From positions 38,430-102,429 of the forward strand of contig JAFPLH010000028.1 in NCBI GenBank assembly GCA_017402845.1: a stretch of 64,000 bases of DNA, given 5' to 3'. A model generated the notes under the pieces. The model had not been told where the DNA came from and did no database searches. It saw only the letters and a list, made by a program, of their open reading frames with translations. This stretch comes from Clostridia bacterium (GTDB taxonomy: Bacteria > Bacillota > Clostridia > Oscillospirales > Acutalibacteraceae). A program made the position numbers and the translations under genes. This document shows, piece by piece, positions 3,255 to 63,474 of this stretch (position 1 is the first letter of the stretch; each line of letters begins with the position of its first letter).

Positions 3255-3416
3255 GGGCACCTCTAAAAACCTCGCACCACCAATCTGCGCCGTATCTTCA
3301 GCCGTCATATTGCATAAAAATTCTTGACATACGTCAGTATGCCGGCGATTTTGTTGTGCAACCTCCCGACTAAATCTACGGCACATCTGAACGACGGCAG
3401 GTTTTTAGAGATGCCC
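3255..3416 (-). mobile_element. 162-bp hairpin MITE, family 1, copy A (TSD TTTA/TTTA at 3251-3254 and 3417-3420)
   Basis: Near-identical to 20382-20543, 51079-51240 and 55974-56137. It has long imperfect inverted arms and a flanking perfect 4-bp direct repeat. It sits in the intergenic gap between two minus-strand genes. Confidence 0.85.
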
Positions 3417-7043: not shown

Positions 7044-7107
7044 ATATTTCACTTCCTTGAGAGCATATTTATGGCAACACCGCACACATTCAGACGATCG
7101 AACTGTG

Positions 7108-7143
7108 TACTCAGACCGCAGGACGTGATTTATTCAGTGTTTC
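7108..7143 (+). repeat. solo right-end fragment of the family-2 hairpin element
   Basis: CTCAGACCGCAGGACGTGATTTATTCAGTGTTTCC matches the right arm of 34477-34646 (CTCAGTCCACAGGACGTGATTTATTCAGTGGTTCC). Confidence 0.7.
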
Positions 7144-7150
7144 CTTAAAT

Positions 7151-7245: not shown

Positions 7246-7282
7246 GTAATCATTCAATTATTTCATTGTTATCAGATATACC

Positions 7283-7316
7283 GTAGATTTAGCCGGCAGG
7301 TTCCTTAGAGATACCC
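7283..7316. repeat. rearranged 34-bp remnant of the family-1 hairpin MITE
   Basis: CCGTAGATTTAGCCGGCAGG matches an internal left-arm segment. It is fused to TTCCTTAGAGATACCC, which matches the inverted element terminus (TTTTTAGAGATGCCC). It abuts the pdp stop codon. Confidence 0.6.
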
Positions 7317-7317
7317 A

Positions 7318-8619
7318 TTATTGAATTATTTTGTATATAAGCGGTTTCGGCTGCGGTTTTTCCTCAGAAAACTCTACTGCCGACAAAAACTGCGCCTTTG
7401 CACCGTCAAGCTTTTCGGGCGTGTTGGTATAAAGCTTTGCAAGAATTTCGCCTTTATTGACATGATCTCCCGTTTTTCTGCACAACTCAATACCTGCACT
7501 GTGGTCTATACTGTCTTCTTTTTTCTCTCTGCCTGCGCCTAACGCATTTGCAGCAAGACCGATAGCTTCACAATTCATATCTGAAATAAATCCTTCACAC
7601 TCCGATATTACATCAAAACAAAACTCAGCTTTTTTAAACTTTGACGTATCAATGAGATATGAAGCGTCACCGCCCTGTGCGGAAACTATTTCTTTCAGCT
7701 TTTCAAATGCTTTTCCGCTTTCAACTGCCTGCTTTGCAAGTATACGACATTCCTCAACAGTCTTTGAAGATGTAAGAGAATACATATTTGCAGCAAGCTC
7801 AATACACAGCTCGTAAAGATCGCCCTTCTGTTCATTTTTAAGTACACTTACCGCTTCGATAATTTCAAGAGTGTTTCCTACCATAAAACCAAGCGGAATA
7901 TCCATATCGGTAATAAGTGCAGTTATCCTTTTACCGCACAGCTTTCCTATGCGGATCATGGACTCGGCAAGCTTCTGAGCGTCGTCTGTGTTCTTCATAA
8001 AAGCGCCGCTGCCGCATTTAACGTCGAGTATGATACAATCGCTGCCAGACGCTATTTTTTTACTCATAATACTTGACGTGATCAGCGGTACACTTTCAAC
8101 CGTTGCAGTAACGTCACGCAATGCATAAAGCTTTTTGTCTGCTGCTGCAATATTTTTGCTTTGACCTATCATTGCAGCTCCTGTTTTATTGATAATATCA
8201 ATAAATTCATCAGGATCTACTGCTGTTCTGAATCCCGGAATAGATTCAAGCTTATCAACAGTACCGCCTGTATGACCAAGCGCTCTGCCGCTCATTTTTG
8301 CCGCATGAGCTCCCAAAGCCGCGGCGATAGGTACTACGATAACAGTAGTTTTATCTCCTACTCCGCCTGTTGAGTGTTTATCAACTGTCAAGCCATTAAC
8401 AGTTGACAGATCAACTCTCTCTCCGGAATCTGCCATAGCAAGAGTCAGATCGGTAGTTTCACGGTCTGTCATACCGTTCAGAAAAACAGCCATAAGCAGT
8501 GCGGACGCCTGATAATCAGCGATCGTACCGTCTGTAACACCCTTTACAAAATATTCTATCTCCTGCTGCGTAAGCTCTTTTCTGTCTCTTTTTTTTGCGA
8601 TAATATCAATAATATCCAT
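7318..8619 (-). CDS. pdp: pyrimidine-nucleoside (thymidine) phosphorylase
   Basis: Contains DKHSTGGVGD, SGRALGHTGGT and the rest of the family pattern. The start was set at MDIIDII (AGGAG plus 8 nt), not at the GTG 9 nt upstream. Confidence 0.9.
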   Translation of the reverse strand: MDIIDIIAKKRDRKELTQQEIEYFVKGVTDGTIADYQASALLMAVFLNGMTDRETTDLTLAMADSGERVDLSTVNGLTVDKHSTGGVGDKTTVIVVPIAAALGAHAAKMSGRALGHTGGTVDKLESIPGFRTAVDPDEFIDIINKTGAAMIGQSKNIAAADKKLYALRDVTATVESVPLITSSIMSKKIASGSDCIILDVKCGSGAFMKNTDDAQKLAESMIRIGKLCGKRITALITDMDIPLGFMVGNTLEIIEAVSVLKNEQKGDLYELCIELAANMYSLTSSKTVEECRILAKQAVESGKAFEKLKEIVSAQGGDASYLIDTSKFKKAEFCFDVISECEGFISDMNCEAIGLAANALGAGREKKEDSIDHSAGIELCRKTGDHVNKGEILAKLYTNTPEKLDGAKAQFLSAVEFSEEKPQPKPLIYKIIQ

Positions 8620-18398: not shown

Positions 18399-20213
18399 TT
18401 ATTCATTTAGTTTGAATACATAGTAATTATTCTTTATATCATACGGAGTATTTAACTCCAAAAGTTTTTCTTTGGTCTTGTTATTATTAACAAGCGTTTT
18501 ATACAGCTCCATTTGCTGTACGTTTGTAGTATAGTACGACGACTCAGAGTTTATATCACGAATAACATAAACTGCTTTTTCTGCCTGATCTACCGTTTCG
18601 GGTATTCCTATATGTATATTGCCGTAGGTCATTACCTTGCTGTCTATGCTTTCAACTTCACTTTGTATAACGCTCGGCTCAACCCTCAGTCCGTAAAGAG
18701 TGATAAGACCTGCGTTATACGTTGCAGTATAATCTACATATATCTGTGAATCTGCGTATTCTTCATTTCGGAAGGTCTCGCACAGTTCAAGAAGATCGTA
18801 ATCAAAGTATGCAAGCGCTTTGTTCTGTTCGGTGAAGCTTCCGCTGAATAAATAGTACGTATAACCGCAGAAATTTGCAAGATATAATAGCGCTGCGAAA
18901 AAGCAAATCAAATAACTGCGATGTTCCCACAGCTTTGAAAACATATAAGCCAGCAGAAGCGCAAATGCAAAATACACGGCGTTATATCTGTAAATAGCCA
19001 ACTGCTCCAAAAGAGTCATAGGGTACATAACTGCTAACATATAAAACAGCACTATAAGCTCAAAGCTGAACTCTTTTTTCTTTACTATATTGTATACTGT
19101 ACTAAACAGCATAAATACAAAACCTAAAAACAGGAGTATTTGAGAAACACTTATCTTGTAATGAGAGAAATGAAGTACATTCTGATAGAATACTCCGTAT
19201 TTATCGTCTGCCATAAAATCGTATTGATCGCAGCTTGTAAGTGTGTTTATGTTTTTGATTATCTCTTTGATCGAAAGCGACTGCCACCCTATCTCTGATA
19301 AACGACCGGCAGACGCATTTGTAAACGTGATACAGCCTATCTTGAATTCGGGCAGTATTCCTACCACAACCAACAAATACAATAGTATGGGTACTGATAC
19401 AACAATAGCACTAAAGAACATTATGCCTGTTTGCTTAATTGTTATTTCCTTTTTGATGAGAGCGTATATTAAAGCCAACACTAAGAAAACAGGCATCATC
19501 ATAACAGCGAGAATGTATGAGTACATACTGATACCAAACATAATTCCGCTTATGAGTGCATATTTGTTTTTTCCTGTTTTTATTAGTCTGACAAAAAAGT
19601 ATAAAAACATTACAAACATAGGCAGCATTGCATTACAGTCAAATGCCCATCGTTCGGACATTATGAAAAACGGCATTATATCTATCACGGCTGCCGTAAT
19701 AACAGCGCACTTTGCGCCAAACATTTCGTATGCGGTCTTAGTGCCGAATATCAGAAGAAGCAAGCCGAAAAATACAGATACCACACGCAGAGTAAACACA
19801 CTGTATCCGAATATTTTTGAAAGTAAAAACGCTATATATACATACAGGCTTGACTGACCTGAACCTGCATTATTAAAATATACAGGAAAACTCACTCCGT
19901 AACGGTCTGTACCAAACTGAGAAAGCGTCCAGGTATTATATCCCATTGAAATTTCATCAATATGCAGTCCCTTTGGTAAAATCGTTATCTGTACAAGTCT
20001 TGTAAACAAAAAGACTATACCTATTACGGTAAAATAGAGCCAGTAGGCTTTATTCTCCGAAATACTCTTTTTCAGCGCCTCAATGCCTTTTAGTTCTTCT
20101 GCGTTCTGATCTTTCGTTTTGGCTGTTTCTTTTGGTACTGAATTATTTGCGTTTGTAGCTTTTGTGCTATTACCTGTTTTGCTGCTGCGTTTTCCGGTCT
20201 TTGACTTTGCCAT
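18399..20213 (-). CDS. GT-C fold glycosyltransferase (ArnT/PMT, GT39/83-like) membrane protein
   Basis: Lys/Thr-rich N-terminal tail, about 12 TM segments, an early HIDEISMGYN loop typical of ArnT/PMT_2, and a C-terminal soluble domain. The start was set at MAKSKTGKR. The ORF track extension to 20444 reads into the MITE. Confidence 0.75.
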   Translation of the reverse strand: MAKSKTGKRSSKTGNSTKATNANNSVPKETAKTKDQNAEELKGIEALKKSISENKAYWLYFTVIGIVFLFTRLVQITILPKGLHIDEISMGYNTWTLSQFGTDRYGVSFPVYFNNAGSGQSSLYVYIAFLLSKIFGYSVFTLRVVSVFFGLLLLIFGTKTAYEMFGAKCAVITAAVIDIMPFFIMSERWAFDCNAMLPMFVMFLYFFVRLIKTGKNKYALISGIMFGISMYSYILAVMMMPVFLVLALIYALIKKEITIKQTGIMFFSAIVVSVPILLYLLVVVGILPEFKIGCITFTNASAGRLSEIGWQSLSIKEIIKNINTLTSCDQYDFMADDKYGVFYQNVLHFSHYKISVSQILLFLGFVFMLFSTVYNIVKKKEFSFELIVLFYMLAVMYPMTLLEQLAIYRYNAVYFAFALLLAYMFSKLWEHRSYLICFFAALLYLANFCGYTYYLFSGSFTEQNKALAYFDYDLLELCETFRNEEYADSQIYVDYTATYNAGLITLYGLRVEPSVIQSEVESIDSKVMTYGNIHIGIPETVDQAEKAVYVIRDINSESSYYTTNVQQMELYKTLVNNNKTKEKLLELNTPYDIKNNYYVFKLNE

Positions 20214-20381
20214 ATCATTATCACCCCGATAATTATAGTATATCATAATAATAATGGTATTGTCCACAATTAATACTGTTCCGATATAGAATTCAGATGA
20301 TCTTTTACTGAACAACGATTTCAATATACTATCAGAAAACACTACCGCCTGCATACACAACAGGCGGTGAAAAAGTATAAA

Positions 20382-20543
20382 GGACACCTCTAAAAACCTC
20401 ACGCCGCCCATCTGCACCGTATCTTCAGCCGTCATATTGCACAAAAAATCTTGACATACGTCAGTATGCCGGCGATTTTAAAGTGCCGTCTGCCAACTAA
20501 ATCTACGGCACATCTGAACGACGGCAGGTTTTTAGAGATGCCC
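20382..20543 (-). mobile_element. 162-bp hairpin MITE, family 1, copy B (TSD TAAA/TAAA at 20378-20381 and 20544-20547)
   Basis: Full-length copy. The 4-bp flanking duplication is perfect. It lies between the Clp-like gene stop and the GT-C gene start. Confidence 0.9.
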
Positions 20544-34430: not shown

Positions 34431-34476
34431 ATTTTACCTCATTTGACACTTCATTCAGGATATAATTATTATCAAG

Positions 34477-34646
34477 GGAAACACTGATTAAATCGAGTGC
34501 CCATATCGCTTAGTATTTTTTCAGGCAAATTGTGCGAAAATCACGCCGGAATACTGACGTATTTCAAGTGATTTGAGTGCAATTTGACAAAAAAGGCAAG
34601 CAAGATGGGTGCTCAGTCCACAGGACGTGATTTATTCAGTGGTTCC
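34477..34646 (+). mobile_element. 170-bp hairpin MITE, family 2 (TSD CAAG/CAAG at 34473-34476 and 34647-34650)
   Basis: The TIRs are GGAAACACTGATTAAATC and GGAACCACTGAATAAATC (reverse complement of the right end). The arms form a long imperfect hairpin. The apical ~45 nt (GGAATACTGACGTATTTCAAG...GTGCAAT) is shared with family 1. Confidence 0.75.
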
Positions 34647-34658
34647 CAAGAAAGGAAG

Positions 34659-35873
34659 ATGACAATGTATAATTACATTAAAAGATTGTTGATCATATTT
34701 CTCTCTGCTCTGGTTTTTTTGACCGTAATAATGCTGTGCTGTGTTCAGGGAGGCGAAAACAAAATAGACATGACTCCAAAGAATACAGAGTCGGAGCACC
34801 ACAGTACCGAGAGTACCGAAGAAAAAGAACATAAACACGTTTTTCATTCGGGTGTATTAAAGGGAGTATGGGTGCCTTATTTTACTTTGTCGAACGGAAA
34901 CGGGGCTATGACGCAAAAAGACTTTGAAAACCACTTTGACCGCATTATTGCCAAATCTAAAGAAAACGGCATAAACGCTCTATTTGTTCATGTGCGCTCT
35001 CACTGTGACGCAGTTTTCCCGTCGGATATTTTTCCGTTTTCCGATATATTTACCGGCAGCGAAACACCGCCGGATTACGATCCGCTCGAATATATGATAA
35101 CAGCCGCACATAATGCAGGACTTGAATTTCATGCATGGATAAATCCGTACAGAGTACTTACAGACGAAAATGCAGTTCTGAGCAAAAACAGTCCGTGTTA
35201 TGATTGGGCAAACGACAACGAAAGCAGCCGTAACATTATTGAATATGAAGGCGGACTGTATCTGAATCCTGCACGGGCAGAGGTTCGTTCTTTGATTATA
35301 GACGGTGTGCGTGAGATTGTCAATAGATACGACGTTGACGGTATTCATCTTGACGACTACTTTTACAGCTTTACCTCTGAGGAGTACGACTCGCTCGAAT
35401 ACGAAGAATACTGCAATAATGTAAATCAGAGATCACAGCCCATGACGCTTGCACAATGGCGGTGTACCAACGTAAATATGCTGATCTCCGGAATATATGC
35501 CGTTGTTAAATGCGCAGATGAAAAGATACAGTTCGGAATATCTCCGCAGGGAAATATGGAAAACGATATCGAAATGGGCGCAGATATTTATGAATGGTGC
35601 AGTAAATATGGTTATATAGACTACATTGCGCCGCAAATCTATTACAGCTTTGACAATACGGTAATGCCCTTTGAAAAAACATTTGATTCATGGCAAGGTA
35701 TTATAGAAAATAATGATATTAAGCTTTACTCAGGACTTGCGCTATACAAAGCAGGCACAGACACCGACGGCGGCTCGTGGCTCGACGGGAAAAGCATTAT
35801 TACCCGTCAGGAGGATTACGCACTAAACGCAGGCGCAGACGGTTATATTCTCTACTCGTGGGAATACTTATAA
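34659..35873 (+). CDS. glycoside-hydrolase-like GHL10 / YngK (UPF0748) family secreted protein
   Basis: TM/signal anchor followed by GVWVPYF, NALFVHVR and AWINPYR, typical of the family-10-like glycosylhydrolase/DUF187 group. The start was set at ATG 34659 after AAAGGAAG. The ORF track start at 34584 lies inside the MITE. Confidence 0.75.
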   Translation: MTMYNYIKRLLIIFLSALVFLTVIMLCCVQGGENKIDMTPKNTESEHHSTESTEEKEHKHVFHSGVLKGVWVPYFTLSNGNGAMTQKDFENHFDRIIAKSKENGINALFVHVRSHCDAVFPSDIFPFSDIFTGSETPPDYDPLEYMITAAHNAGLEFHAWINPYRVLTDENAVLSKNSPCYDWANDNESSRNIIEYEGGLYLNPARAEVRSLIIDGVREIVNRYDVDGIHLDDYFYSFTSEEYDSLEYEEYCNNVNQRSQPMTLAQWRCTNVNMLISGIYAVVKCADEKIQFGISPQGNMENDIEMGADIYEWCSKYGYIDYIAPQIYYSFDNTVMPFEKTFDSWQGIIENNDIKLYSGLALYKAGTDTDGGSWLDGKSIITRQEDYALNAGADGYILYSWEYL

Positions 35874-51004: not shown

Positions 51005-51078
51005 CATAAAAACCACCCTTAAAAATAGTATTTTATACACATTATATCACGTTCCATTTTAAAATACAATTTTTTTAA

Positions 51079-51240
51079 GGGCATCTCTAAAACCCTGCCG
51101 TCGTTCAGATGTGCCGTAGATTTAGTCGGCAGGCTGCACAATAAAATCGCTGGCATACTGACGTATGTCAAGATTTTTTGTGCAAGATGACGGCTAAAGA
51201 TACGGTGCAGATGGGCGGCGTGAGGTTTTTAGAGGTGTCC
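51079..51240 (+). mobile_element. 162-bp hairpin MITE, family 1, copy C (TSD TTAA/TTAA at 51075-51078 and 51241-51244)
   Basis: Full-length copy in the opposite orientation to copies A and B, with a perfect 4-bp duplication. Confidence 0.9.
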
Positions 51241-51246
51241 TTAAAT

Positions 51247-51285
51247 ACAAAAAACCGTCCGGAGAACCGGACGGCTGTTTTGTTT
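51247..51285 (-). terminator. Rho-independent (bidirectional) terminator after the SASP gene
   Basis: CCGTCCGG-agaa-CCGGACGG flanked by an A-run and a T-run. Confidence 0.75.
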
Positions 51286-55973: not shown

Positions 55974-56137
55974 GGGCATCTCTAAAGAACCTGCCGTCGT
56001 TCAGATGTGCCGTAGATTTAGTCGGCAGATTGTACAAGAAATTTGCAGGAATACTAACGTATTTCAAGAATTTATTGTGCAATATGACGGCTGATGATAC
56101 GGTGCAGATGGACGGCGTGAGGTTTTTTGAGGTGCCC
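55974..56137 (+). mobile_element. 164-bp hairpin MITE, family 1, copy D (TSD TAAA/TAAA at 55970-55973 and 56138-56141)
   Basis: The most diverged full copy. Its apical hairpin carries the AATAC/GTATT variant that is also seen in family 2. Confidence 0.85.
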
Positions 56138-62019: not shown

Positions 62020-63474
62020 ATGAAAGAAAAATTTGCAGCCGCTGCAACTGCAATAATGCTGATCTGCTCACAGCAAACTGTATCAGCTTCTACACATACA
62101 CTCATTCTGGGTGACGTAAATCTGGACGGCAGGGTTACTGCGTTTGATTCTTTACTCGTTCAGCGTCATGTTATCAATATGTTACACCTTGAGGGCGAAA
62201 GGCTTATCGCTGCCGATATTAATCAGACAGGTATGATCTCAAATATTGACGCTATGGAAATTCTCAGAACTTCCATTAAACTCTTGCCCGTTAAAACTAT
62301 CGAAATCGAAGATGTCGTTTCCGATACCGATAAAGAAAGCGACACTGACACTTTTACTGATGATACTACTGATACTACTGATACACCCGATATAGTCATA
62401 ATCGAAAGCGATACTGACACACTTTCTGAGTACGACACAGAAAATGATACCGACACGCTGTCAGAATACGACACAGAAAATGATACCGATACGCTGTCAG
62501 AATACGACACAGAAAATGATACCGACACACAATCCGATAACGATACGGAGAACGATCCCGAAACCGATACAGATAATGACACCGATACCGACGAATACAG
62601 CGATAATATGGGTATTCCCTACTCTATGACGCTTAACTGCGGTGACAGAGTTTATCTTGAACCGGATTATAATGGGTGGTGTTCTTTTTATGCTGACGGT
62701 ACAAGAGCTTCTGACGATCCGAGCTGTACAGTACTTGAAGTATACCAATCGGGAATGATAAAGGGTTATCACACCGGCACAAGCGTTGTTACCGTTGAGG
62801 CTTCTAACGGTGAAAAAGCCTATTGCAAGGTAACAGTTAAACACAATATGACAGAAAGTTATATTCATGTTGGAGATCACAAGCTTAAAGTAACTAAAAA
62901 AATAATGACCGCAAACGACTGCTACAACGAAGCTGACGATTTTGACGTTATCAAAGGACTTATGGTACACTCTACCGCAGAACCGGGAAAAAATGCTGCT
63001 TTCTGGTATGACGCATGGAATCGCCCCGAAACTCCGGCGGCAGTTCATGCTTTTCTGGATAACGAGGAGGTTTGTCAATATCTGCCATATGAACTGCAGG
63101 GCTGGCACGCCGGCAGCTCGGCAAATAGAACACATCTTGATTTCGAGATCTGCGAACCTGCCGGCTTTAATTACGACGAAAACTGGGAAATTGAAAACTA
63201 TGATGTAGAAAAGCAACAGCCTTATTTTGATAAAATCTGGGAAAATGCCACTGTATATTCTGCATATTTATGCTATATTTCAGATCTTGACGCAAGTGAT
63301 ATCATCAGCCACAACGAGGGCGGCAAAATTGGTATTGCAACAGATCATAAGGATCCCGATCACTGGTTTATCAAACATAATAAAACTATGGACGATTTCA
63401 GACATGATGTAGAACAGCTTCTTAAAGAAGATATATATATAACAGACGAGGTAATTGTCAGAGAATTACCTTAA
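62020..63474 (+). CDS. secreted dockerin-containing N-acetylmuramoyl-L-alanine amidase (Amidase_2/PGRP-type) with a D/T-rich repeat linker and an Ig-like module
   Basis: Signal peptide, then a type-I dockerin duplicated Ca-loop (GDVNLDGRVTAFD / ADINQTGMISNID). Next come 3x DTDTLSEYDTEN, a Big_2-like segment (VTVEASNGEKAYCKVTV), and an amidase region (VHSTAEPG, GWHAGSSANRTHLDFEICEP, SHNEG..DHKDPDHW). Confidence 0.75.
   Translation: MKEKFAAAATAIMLICSQQTVSASTHTLILGDVNLDGRVTAFDSLLVQRHVINMLHLEGERLIAADINQTGMISNIDAMEILRTSIKLLPVKTIEIEDVVSDTDKESDTDTFTDDTTDTTDTPDIVIIESDTDTLSEYDTENDTDTLSEYDTENDTDTLSEYDTENDTDTQSDNDTENDPETDTDNDTDTDEYSDNMGIPYSMTLNCGDRVYLEPDYNGWCSFYADGTRASDDPSCTVLEVYQSGMIKGYHTGTSVVTVEASNGEKAYCKVTVKHNMTESYIHVGDHKLKVTKKIMTANDCYNEADDFDVIKGLMVHSTAEPGKNAAFWYDAWNRPETPAAVHAFLDNEEVCQYLPYELQGWHAGSSANRTHLDFEICEPAGFNYDENWEIENYDVEKQQPYFDKIWENATVYSAYLCYISDLDASDIISHNEGGKIGIATDHKDPDHWFIKHNKTMDDFRHDVEQLLKEDIYITDEVIVRELP
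62410..62517 (+). repeat. 3 x 36-bp in-frame tandem repeat (DTDTLSEYDTEN)
   Basis: The units are 62410-62445, 62446-62481 and 62482-62517, with 1-5 differences between them. Degenerate D/T-rich units flank them. Confidence 0.9.

Follow-up and report, generated by a model that had tools for sequence, protein, structure and literature searches.

A superfamily of Oscillospirales MITEs in which one strand is under selection to fold

Several kinds of small repeat that are dispersed through bacterial genomes are able to fold. The closest in kind to the element treated here is bcr1 of the Bacillus cereus group, a MITE (miniature inverted-repeat transposable element) that is transcribed as part of untranslated regions (UTRs) and whose RNA structure is kept by compensatory changes (PMC3184786, PMC3446304). 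The present element occupies positions 51079–51240 of a 64,000-nt stretch of DNA from a Clostridia bacterium of the Acutalibacteraceae (contig JAFPLH010000028.1), which was analysed at its full length and is called the window below. Like bcr1 (and bcr2 and bcr3), which is MITE-like and about 155–160 bp long, it comes from a Firmicute, has short AT-rich target duplications, and occurs in many dispersed intergenic copies. The hosts differ, being Bacillus in one case and Oscillospirales in the other, and for bcr1 no description exists of an invariant hairpin tip common to many families that differ in their termini.

The Correia elements (NEMIS) of Neisseria are dense MITEs of 100–160 bp whose inverted repeats, once transcribed, pair as a long RNA hairpin, and which have a conserved centre. 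Passages of two papers present these hairpins as targets of RNase III (PMC3049150, PMC3184786), and passages of the former name ERIC and Correia elements alike as RNA targets of RNases (PMC3049150). The Correia centre, however, is a DNA site bound by IHF, and the Correia ends carry promoter elements. In the Oscillospirales elements this place is taken by a hairpin tip that has a fixed G:U pair, and no promoter was found. ERIC (IRU) and the pneumococcal BOX, RUP and SPRITE repeats are likewise small interspersed repeats that fold as RNA, with orientation-dependent effects on transcripts. BOX is modular, and the pneumococcal repeats follow a coding-strand bias, about 61% of them lying on the leading strand (PMC3049150). 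The elements described here are without orientation bias, and have no sequence or structural similarity to those repeats.

Strand-specific imperfect hairpins, with structure conserved over sequence, are also found in integron attC sites, at the ends of IS200/IS605 elements and in plasmid single-strand origins. Terminal inverted repeats with target duplication are absent from those sites, which are also not scattered in the manner of MITEs. They conserve extrahelical bases or nick sites in the loop, whereas the loop is the variable part of the elements here. What sets these elements apart from bcr1, Correia and ERIC-type repeats is their one long rod, the spacing of tandem G.A loops by about one turn and, above all, a tip that stays invariant over many families of differing termini and over several bacterial families. 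They are a new superfamily within a known kind, that of MITEs with a selected one-strand hairpin.

The sequence at 51079–51240 reads on the plus strand as a 162-nt repeat, as it had been described in a first-pass annotation of the window, with TTAA on each side. Its termini are GGGCATCTCTAAAACCC and GGTTTTTAGAGGTGTCC, and plus is the strand that folds well. Repeat finding and alignment recover four full copies in the window, 85–94% identical, which form family F1: copy A (3255–3416, minus strand), copy B (20382–20543, minus strand), copy C (the one just named) and copy D (55974–56137, plus strand, 164 nt). Each is flanked on both sides by its own 4-bp direct repeat (TAAA, TTTA, TTAA and TAAA, respectively), equally readable as a 2-bp duplication within a TWWA target. 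The terminal inverted repeats, GGGCATCTCTAAAAACC and GGTTTTTAGAGGTGCCC, are 17 bp or longer. F1 elements are 162–164 nt long and non-coding; the open reading frames (ORFs) that cross the copies are extensions of long ORFs on the stop-poor antisense strand. Being small, non-coding and multi-copy, with inverted termini and target duplications, copy C is a MITE. A fifth F1 copy lies on metagenome contig L117, the only one found when further copies were sought in metagenomes. Family-level statistics were therefore taken from sister families.

With RNA parameters, copy C folds to -91.2 kcal/mol on the plus strand (z = -11.6) and to -56.4 kcal/mol on the complement. Copies A, B and D give -78 to -88 kcal/mol on the sense strand and -47 to -56 kcal/mol on the antisense strand, so the one-strand fold proposed in the first-pass annotation is borne out over all four copies (-78 to -91 against -47 to -56). 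With DNA parameters the values for copy C are -41.6 and -30.5 kcal/mol. The strand asymmetry is thus smaller, 11 kcal/mol as compared with 35 by RNA parameters. A pair table of the five F1 copies contains 9–11 G:U pairs and 0–1 A:C mismatches per copy, in line with the strand-specific pattern first reported; the number exceeds the 7–8 G:U pairs counted at that time because the inner stem is counted too.

The same table places three 2×2 internal loops on the plus strand of copy C, at the arm positions originally given for them. The first (arm positions 19–20) has GC at 51097–51098 opposite UG at 51221–51222. The second (30–31) has GA at 51108–51109, within CAGAUG, opposite GA at 51210–51211, and the third (41–42) has GA at 51119–51120, within UAGAUU, opposite GA at 51199–51200; both of these are tandem G.A loops. 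Another irregularity follows about 11 nt past the third loop. The exact 11-nt spacing that had been claimed is present in F1, where it is seen in three or four loops of one family, but it does not carry over unchanged to the relatives. The AGAU motif, responsible for the tandem G.A loops, is spaced 11–14 nt apart, mostly 11, in F1 and its nearest relatives, and its periodicity is absent from several families that retain the fold. Such periodicity thus characterises families and is no rule of the superfamily. By arithmetic from the spacing, the 2×2 loops would lie on one face of the helix.

Differences between the copies respect the pairing, as had been noticed from the window alone. Compared with the other copies, copy A has one G:U changed to G:C and two G:C changed to G:U. 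One apical pair covaries, being C:G in copies A–C and A:U in copy D and in L117, which also carries one true double change, from C:G to U:A. The apical module of copy C (51152–51172, plus strand; GGCATAC-TGAC-GTATGTC-AAG) consists of a 7-bp stem with a fixed G:U pair and a 4-nt loop, and is common to all related families.

F1 is one branch of a far larger superfamily with an invariant tip, which the first-pass annotation overlooked. Within the window, element E of a sister family (34476–34647, plus strand) has the same apical module, the 21-nt tip GGMATACTRACGTATKTCAAG, despite its different termini (GGGAAACACTGATTAAATC...); it also has an extra small hairpin in its 3' arm. A scan with the tip pattern, covering one genome per species, found at least 116 loci. 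Among the matches listed, nearly all carriers are Ruminococcus, Oscillospiraceae, Acutalibacteraceae and unclassified Clostridia metagenome-assembled genomes (MAGs) from rumen or gut. They include Ruminococcus flavefaciens FD-1, Ruminococcaceae bacterium P7 and Clostridiales bacterium NK3B98. MGBC108887 has at least 10 loci of related elements, and dozens of further copies lie in varied contexts in other genomes.

Hairpin extraction yielded 79 complete elements, which fall into 19 clusters at 75% identity. The termini of the clusters are distinct (for example GGCAAYACCGCACA, GGAAACACTGATTAAATC and GGGTGTATCTGAAAAC, or GGAACTGTTGGGAAATAAG, ATTGCTCCGCCAATTAAG and AGAGCCTGTTCACAT), and the tip is thus common to at least 19 clusters of MITE-like elements with differing termini. 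Its consensus is 5'-GCA-GGMAUAC-UNNC-GUAUKUC-AA-G. In the 885 kb of sequence fetched, the tip is nearly invariant, and only the 4-nt loop and one covarying pair vary. That pair, M/K, occurs in only two combinations in 128 matches, both complementary, although the search pattern allowed four.

Rfam 15 has no match at gathering thresholds at the element, in the window or at eight related loci, and a permissive search gave only chance-level matches with E above 1. A known RNA family was accordingly rejected, Rfam being empty at curated and permissive thresholds alike. Nothing specific on the tip sequence or on Ruminococcus MITEs was found in the searchable literature. The elements are a large undescribed superfamily in Oscillospirales, spread over Ruminococcus, Oscillospiraceae and Acutalibacteraceae.

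Some members are larger. Elements of about 400 nt hold the module off-centre between long inverted termini (L024, L041, L044, L060 and L083). There is a likeness between these termini (e.g. TAAGCTGACGGGAATCGAACACG) and a tRNA's T-arm and acceptor end. A tRNA-like or tmRNA-linked module was nevertheless rejected, as ARAGORN and Rfam call no tRNA and the stretches are the long inverted termini themselves. A phage or plasmid origin was also discarded: there is one weak phage match and no plasmid match, and six viral contigs carry the tip. Truncation at the 5' end, of the kind left by retrotransposition, was rejected too, as copies truncated at the 5' end and at the 3' end both occur. One tip match lies on a contig labelled Bacteroidaceae (L046), all others among the matches listed being from Clostridia; it may reflect mis-binning or transfer.

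Evidence that pairing itself is maintained can be obtained from F2, the largest family. Nineteen diverse F2 sequences were analysed by RNAalifold, by column shuffles and by sliding the pairing partner. The fold has 68 pairs, with pairing in 95.1% of cells and double changes in 28 of the 68; in 500 column shuffles the observed values were never reached. When the partner is slid by 1–3 columns, pairing drops to 34–46%. An extra three-pair hairpin found solely in the 3' arm (pairs 147–149/154–156) also covaries. Covariation across families is also seen in the helix adjoining the tip, where one pair is AU in 13 cases, CG in 10, UA in 9 and UG in 2.

The direction of the changes is informative as well. 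Across many copies, changes to G:U and to A:C are far from equally frequent, and the hypothesis thus withstood the refuting test set for it in the first-pass annotation: compared with the family consensus, Watson–Crick pairs have become G:U in 68 columns and A:C in 36 (p = 0.002), and private substitutions within a genome give 39 and 12, respectively (p = 2e-4). A mutation bias behind the G:U excess was rejected by means of a control at unpaired sites. At paired sites, C>T and A>G changes together number 36 and G>A and T>C changes 17, whereas at unpaired sites the corresponding numbers are 2 and 11 (Fisher p = 0.001). Because the transition bias is reversed at unpaired sites, the excess points to selection for pairing and not to the mutational spectrum. 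One strand is under selection to fold into an imperfect rod of about 70 bp. Simple decay of a double-stranded inverted repeat, which had been discounted from the start, fails to explain the biased substitutions at paired sites, the covariation and the opposite bias at unpaired sites.

The strand asymmetry is general and no accident of the founder sequences. In each of the 19 clusters the more stable fold is on the tip-defined strand, with a mean difference of -19.9 kcal/mol (Wilcoxon p = 4e-6). For a strand-neutral test, the left arm of each cluster was aligned to the reverse complement of its own right arm; the summed means of the 19 clusters are 116 G:U against 55 A:C. Transversion mismatches in the representatives are mainly of purines (GA 50, AG 49, AA 42, GG 15) and much less often of pyrimidines (TT 11, CT 5, TC 5, CC 4). 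The outer arms, taken as the parts more than 45 nt from the tip, are unrelated in sequence between clusters. Over the 19 clusters they contain 44 G:U against 14 A:C (p = 1e-4) and 47 purine–purine against 19 pyrimidine–pyrimidine mismatches (p = 8e-4), and G:U exceeds A:C in 14 clusters, with the reverse in 4. In the F2 alignment, G:U occurs in 145 cells and A:C in 26, and unpaired columns are 72% purine. Certain words likewise belong to the sense strand, AGAT occurring 35 times against 5 for ATCT and CAAG 43 times against 3 for CTTG. Overall the sense strand is purine-rich, and about 17% of pairs (about one in six) are G:U.

The means by which these elements move is suggested by IS5-family insertion sequences (ISs). 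At L099 and L052, an F2-type terminus abuts a gene for a 325-aa protein with DDE_Tnp_1 and DUF772. Close relatives of this protein are abundant and are named IS5 family transposase at their source, some of them from Ruminococcus. An intact IS was defined from contigs in at least five different contexts; both of its ends begin GGCAACACCGCATA..., and its transposase has 321–325 aa. It is found at L128–L135 (e.g. L134, about 1430–2585) and at L099 (55–1200), and its junctions are TTAA or CTAA/TTAA. F2 MITEs have 13–17 bp of terminus and the target preference in common with this IS, as expressed in their TA/TTAA junctions. The interior of the IS, however, is unrelated to that of the F2 MITEs. The hairpin core is therefore cargo and not an IS remnant, and F2 is not a simple deletion derivative. 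Judged by these shared ends, the intact IS presumably supplies transposase in trans to F2 MITEs.

The intact IS is very abundant in rumen and gut assemblies, and its left end has a promoter-like site, TTGCGA-17-TATAAT. A cognate IS for F1 was not found, and no transposase adjoins the copies in the window. By inspection, 12 of 17 positions agree between the F1 termini and the termini of the GGGTGTATCTGAAAAC family. On L117 (644–1093, minus strand), a transposase-like ORF (...ARANGLDAETYLTELFS...), which may be of the IS66 family, has its C-terminal end directly upstream of the F1 copy. Most likely, the elements would constitute a new family of IS5-mobilised MITEs with a structured RNA module.

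Of the molecules that could fold, RNA is the most likely, with about an even chance of being the right one. If so, sense transcription of a copy, by read-through or from a neighbouring promoter, would yield a very stable hairpin. G:U and G.A pairs would keep the RNA helix intact and at the same time lower the palindromic perfection of the DNA. From established knowledge, a poorer DNA palindrome should shield the 160-bp inverted repeat from instability. The hairpin would then act at the RNA level, perhaps as a determinant of processing or stability (as a target of a double-strand-specific RNase or a block to exonucleases) or as a protein-binding decoy. Substitutions giving rise to G:U are roughly as frequent as those at unpaired sites and so seem nearly neutral, as is expected for G:U in RNA. 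RNA is also favoured over DNA by the larger strand gap obtained with RNA energies, by the roughly 17% of G:U pairs, and by the purine-rich loops and sense strand, all of which are suggestive only. In Firmicutes, RNA-synonymous strands are purine-rich. The bcr1, ERIC and Correia elements offer precedents for an RNA that folds (PMC3184786, PMC3446304, PMC3049150).

The first-pass annotation had expected such a pattern of a transcribed structured RNA or a single-stranded intermediate. Its core stands, in that one strand is selected to fold; the element itself offers no conserved promoter or terminator, and its orientation is random.

These last points belong to a body of findings that weigh against an RNA that folds. 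Inspection of the family consensus reveals no conserved sigma-70-like promoter or terminator in the element. Where neighbouring genes run in tandem, 11 copies are sense and 19 antisense (p = 0.2), with 10 more in divergent and 9 in convergent contexts, and orientation relative to local GC skew is 31 against 33. With random orientation, most copies are not placed for sense co-transcription. Copy C in particular lies between a terminator and a promoter, where low transcription of either strand is expected. An invariant tip stem with a variable loop is more typical of duplex recognition, whether of double-stranded DNA or of a DNA hairpin, and every asymmetry seen also fits single-stranded DNA. 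Finally, the bias among private substitutions implies constraint on many copies, or on all source copies, and so broad a constraint is hard to reconcile with an RNA function at a few transcribed loci.

Particular forms of transcriptional role were tried and rejected. For an element-borne promoter, there is an antisense TTGACA/TTGAAA at the tip without a conserved -10 downstream. For an intrinsic, terminator-like repeat, F1 has a T run after the apical hairpin; in other families this is replaced by an A-rich strand (e.g. GGAAAAATGACG), so the feature is not conserved. Against a co-transcribed element of a 3'-UTR or operon stands the lack of any bias towards the sense orientation. That antisense ORFs cross the elements in excess is an artefact of a sense strand rich in purines and stops. 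A replication-strand bias, as judged by GC skew, gave no signal, and skew in the window follows gene strand only.

A bolder reading, itself rather doubtful, takes the conserved core (the invariant tip, covarying helices and purine-rich loops) to be structured RNA of a new class, widespread in Oscillospirales and spread by riding on IS5-type MITEs. In its strongest form, the fold would be needed for the element's proliferation. That form would imply a single-stranded step, of RNA or DNA, in the mobilisation of MITEs that otherwise seem to be ordinary DDE-transposase elements. A need for the fold in proliferation would explain why constraint is seen in either orientation and in private substitutions.

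The best surviving alternative, though still a doubtful one, is that single-stranded DNA folds. The sense strand would form a hairpin during excision, replication or integration, or would be recognised by a protein as a DNA hairpin, and selection would act on every potential source copy, irrespective of how it is oriented in the chromosome. Random orientation and the G:U bias of private substitutions suit such a life cycle of the element better than they suit local transcription, the asymmetry is present under DNA parameters as well (-41.6 against -30.5 kcal/mol), and an invariant tip stem with a variable loop suits sequence-specific duplex recognition. Tandem G.A and G.T are stable mismatches in DNA. 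The termini and target duplications, on the other hand, are of the IS5-family DDE type, and elements of this type work by cutting and joining double-stranded ends, with no need for a folded single strand. Known single-strand transposons (IS200/IS605, IS91) have neither target duplication nor long terminal inverted repeats; the present elements have copy-specific direct repeats and inverted termini of at least 17 bp, and so lack the defining features of that group. Exposure on the lagging strand would predict a replication orientation bias, and neither gene strand nor GC skew, used as proxies, indicates one. About 10 G:T per 60 pairs is a heavy cost in a DNA hairpin and is nearly free in RNA.

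It is improbable that the architecture serves double-stranded DNA. The palindromic tip, GAATAC-N4-GTATTC, would bind a dimeric or DNA-bending protein, and phased AGAT motifs, about 11 bp apart and oriented alike on the two arms, would give the DNA a curvature; together the two would help the ends of so short an element meet in a transposition complex. A central IHF site is thought to play such a role in Correia elements, and 160 bp, the size of an element, is close to DNA's persistence length. Conserved half-sites in the tip, its variable 4-nt spacer and the symmetric covariation at one position agree with this idea, as do directly oriented AGAT repeats at 11–14 bp and the random genomic orientation. 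Yet it does not account for complementarity being kept at some 60 further positions by way of double changes, nor for mismatches being G:U rather than A:C. The extra covarying hairpin in the 3' arm of sister families is left unexplained, and several families keep the fold without AGAT periodicity. A purely double-stranded reading survives as a minor contributor only.

Equally hard to credit is the absence of any function, with the near-palindrome arising by, for instance, fold-back duplication of one end followed by templated correction from arm to arm, and the asymmetry being an accident of a few founder sequences or of mutation bias. Ancestry is shared within a family, so that many G:U pairs come by inheritance and do not count as independent; correction in quasi-palindromes can copy changes from arm to arm; and most copies resemble ordinary selfish insertions at intergenic AT-rich sites. 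This explanation is already refuted to a large degree, since the asymmetry recurs in unrelated outer arms (14 against 4 clusters; 44 against 14 pooled), 19 of 19 clusters favour the same strand, opposite biases at paired and unpaired sites exclude a simple strand-specific mutation spectrum, arm-to-arm correction is strand-blind and would erase G:T and A:C alike, and the 21-nt tip is identical across bacterial families.

In the window, the elements lie among unrelated housekeeping genes, at a density of about one copy per 12 kb. Copy A is between the genes for an AI-2E transporter and a methionine gamma-lyase, copy B between glycosyltransferase-like and Clp ATPase genes, and copy D between genes for an FAD-dependent protein and a dihydroorotase-like protein; other genes around the copies encode CinA, a small acid-soluble spore protein (SASP) and a pseudouridine synthase. 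Such neighbours, together with the spore-protein gene, identify the window as chromosomal DNA of a spore-forming member of the Clostridia. There are also partial copies. A 49-nt F1 fragment at 7272–7320 (plus strand) is rearranged, with an inner piece of the left arm joined to an inverted terminal piece, and a solo right end (a half copy) of the E-type family occupies 7104–7148 (plus strand). The two are about 125 nt apart, in a small intergenic stretch that has been hit repeatedly.

At the site of copy C, the terminator of the SASP gene (51253–51276) starts 12 nt beyond the element. On the other side, 10 nt away, is a near-consensus promoter of the cinA-like gene on the minus strand (TTGTAT-17-TATAAT, within 51040–51078), and the insertion displaces the former sequence upstream of its -35. 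Copy C is present in three of four metagenome contigs that have the neighbouring SASP gene, the fourth (L119) diverging into unrelated sequence just ahead of the insertion point; a clean empty site was not obtained among the four. Two short contigs of this set (among L119–L121) end inside the MITE, and such repeats evidently fragment assemblies of the host organism.

Two ORF calls in the window, 18399–20444 (minus strand) and 34584–35873 (plus strand), begin inside copy B (20382–20444) and element E (34584–34647), and the N-terminal extensions they would add are probably spurious. Elsewhere, at 62404–62583, four to five tandem 36-nt repeats lie within ORF 62020–63474. They would encode an acidic 12-residue unit, roughly E-N/S-D-T-D-T-L-S-E-Y-D-T.

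The elements add an undescribed and apparently very abundant repeat superfamily to the genomes of rumen and gut fibre degraders, Ruminococcus and its relatives. They provide an unusually clean comparative case of a MITE interior that is selected to fold on one strand. Should the fold be one of RNA, processing that depends on the hairpin could affect hundreds of loci per genome. Should mobility depend on the fold, the view that MITEs require only their termini would be called into question. The cultured carriers, R. flavefaciens FD-1, P7 and NK3B98, make the question directly testable.

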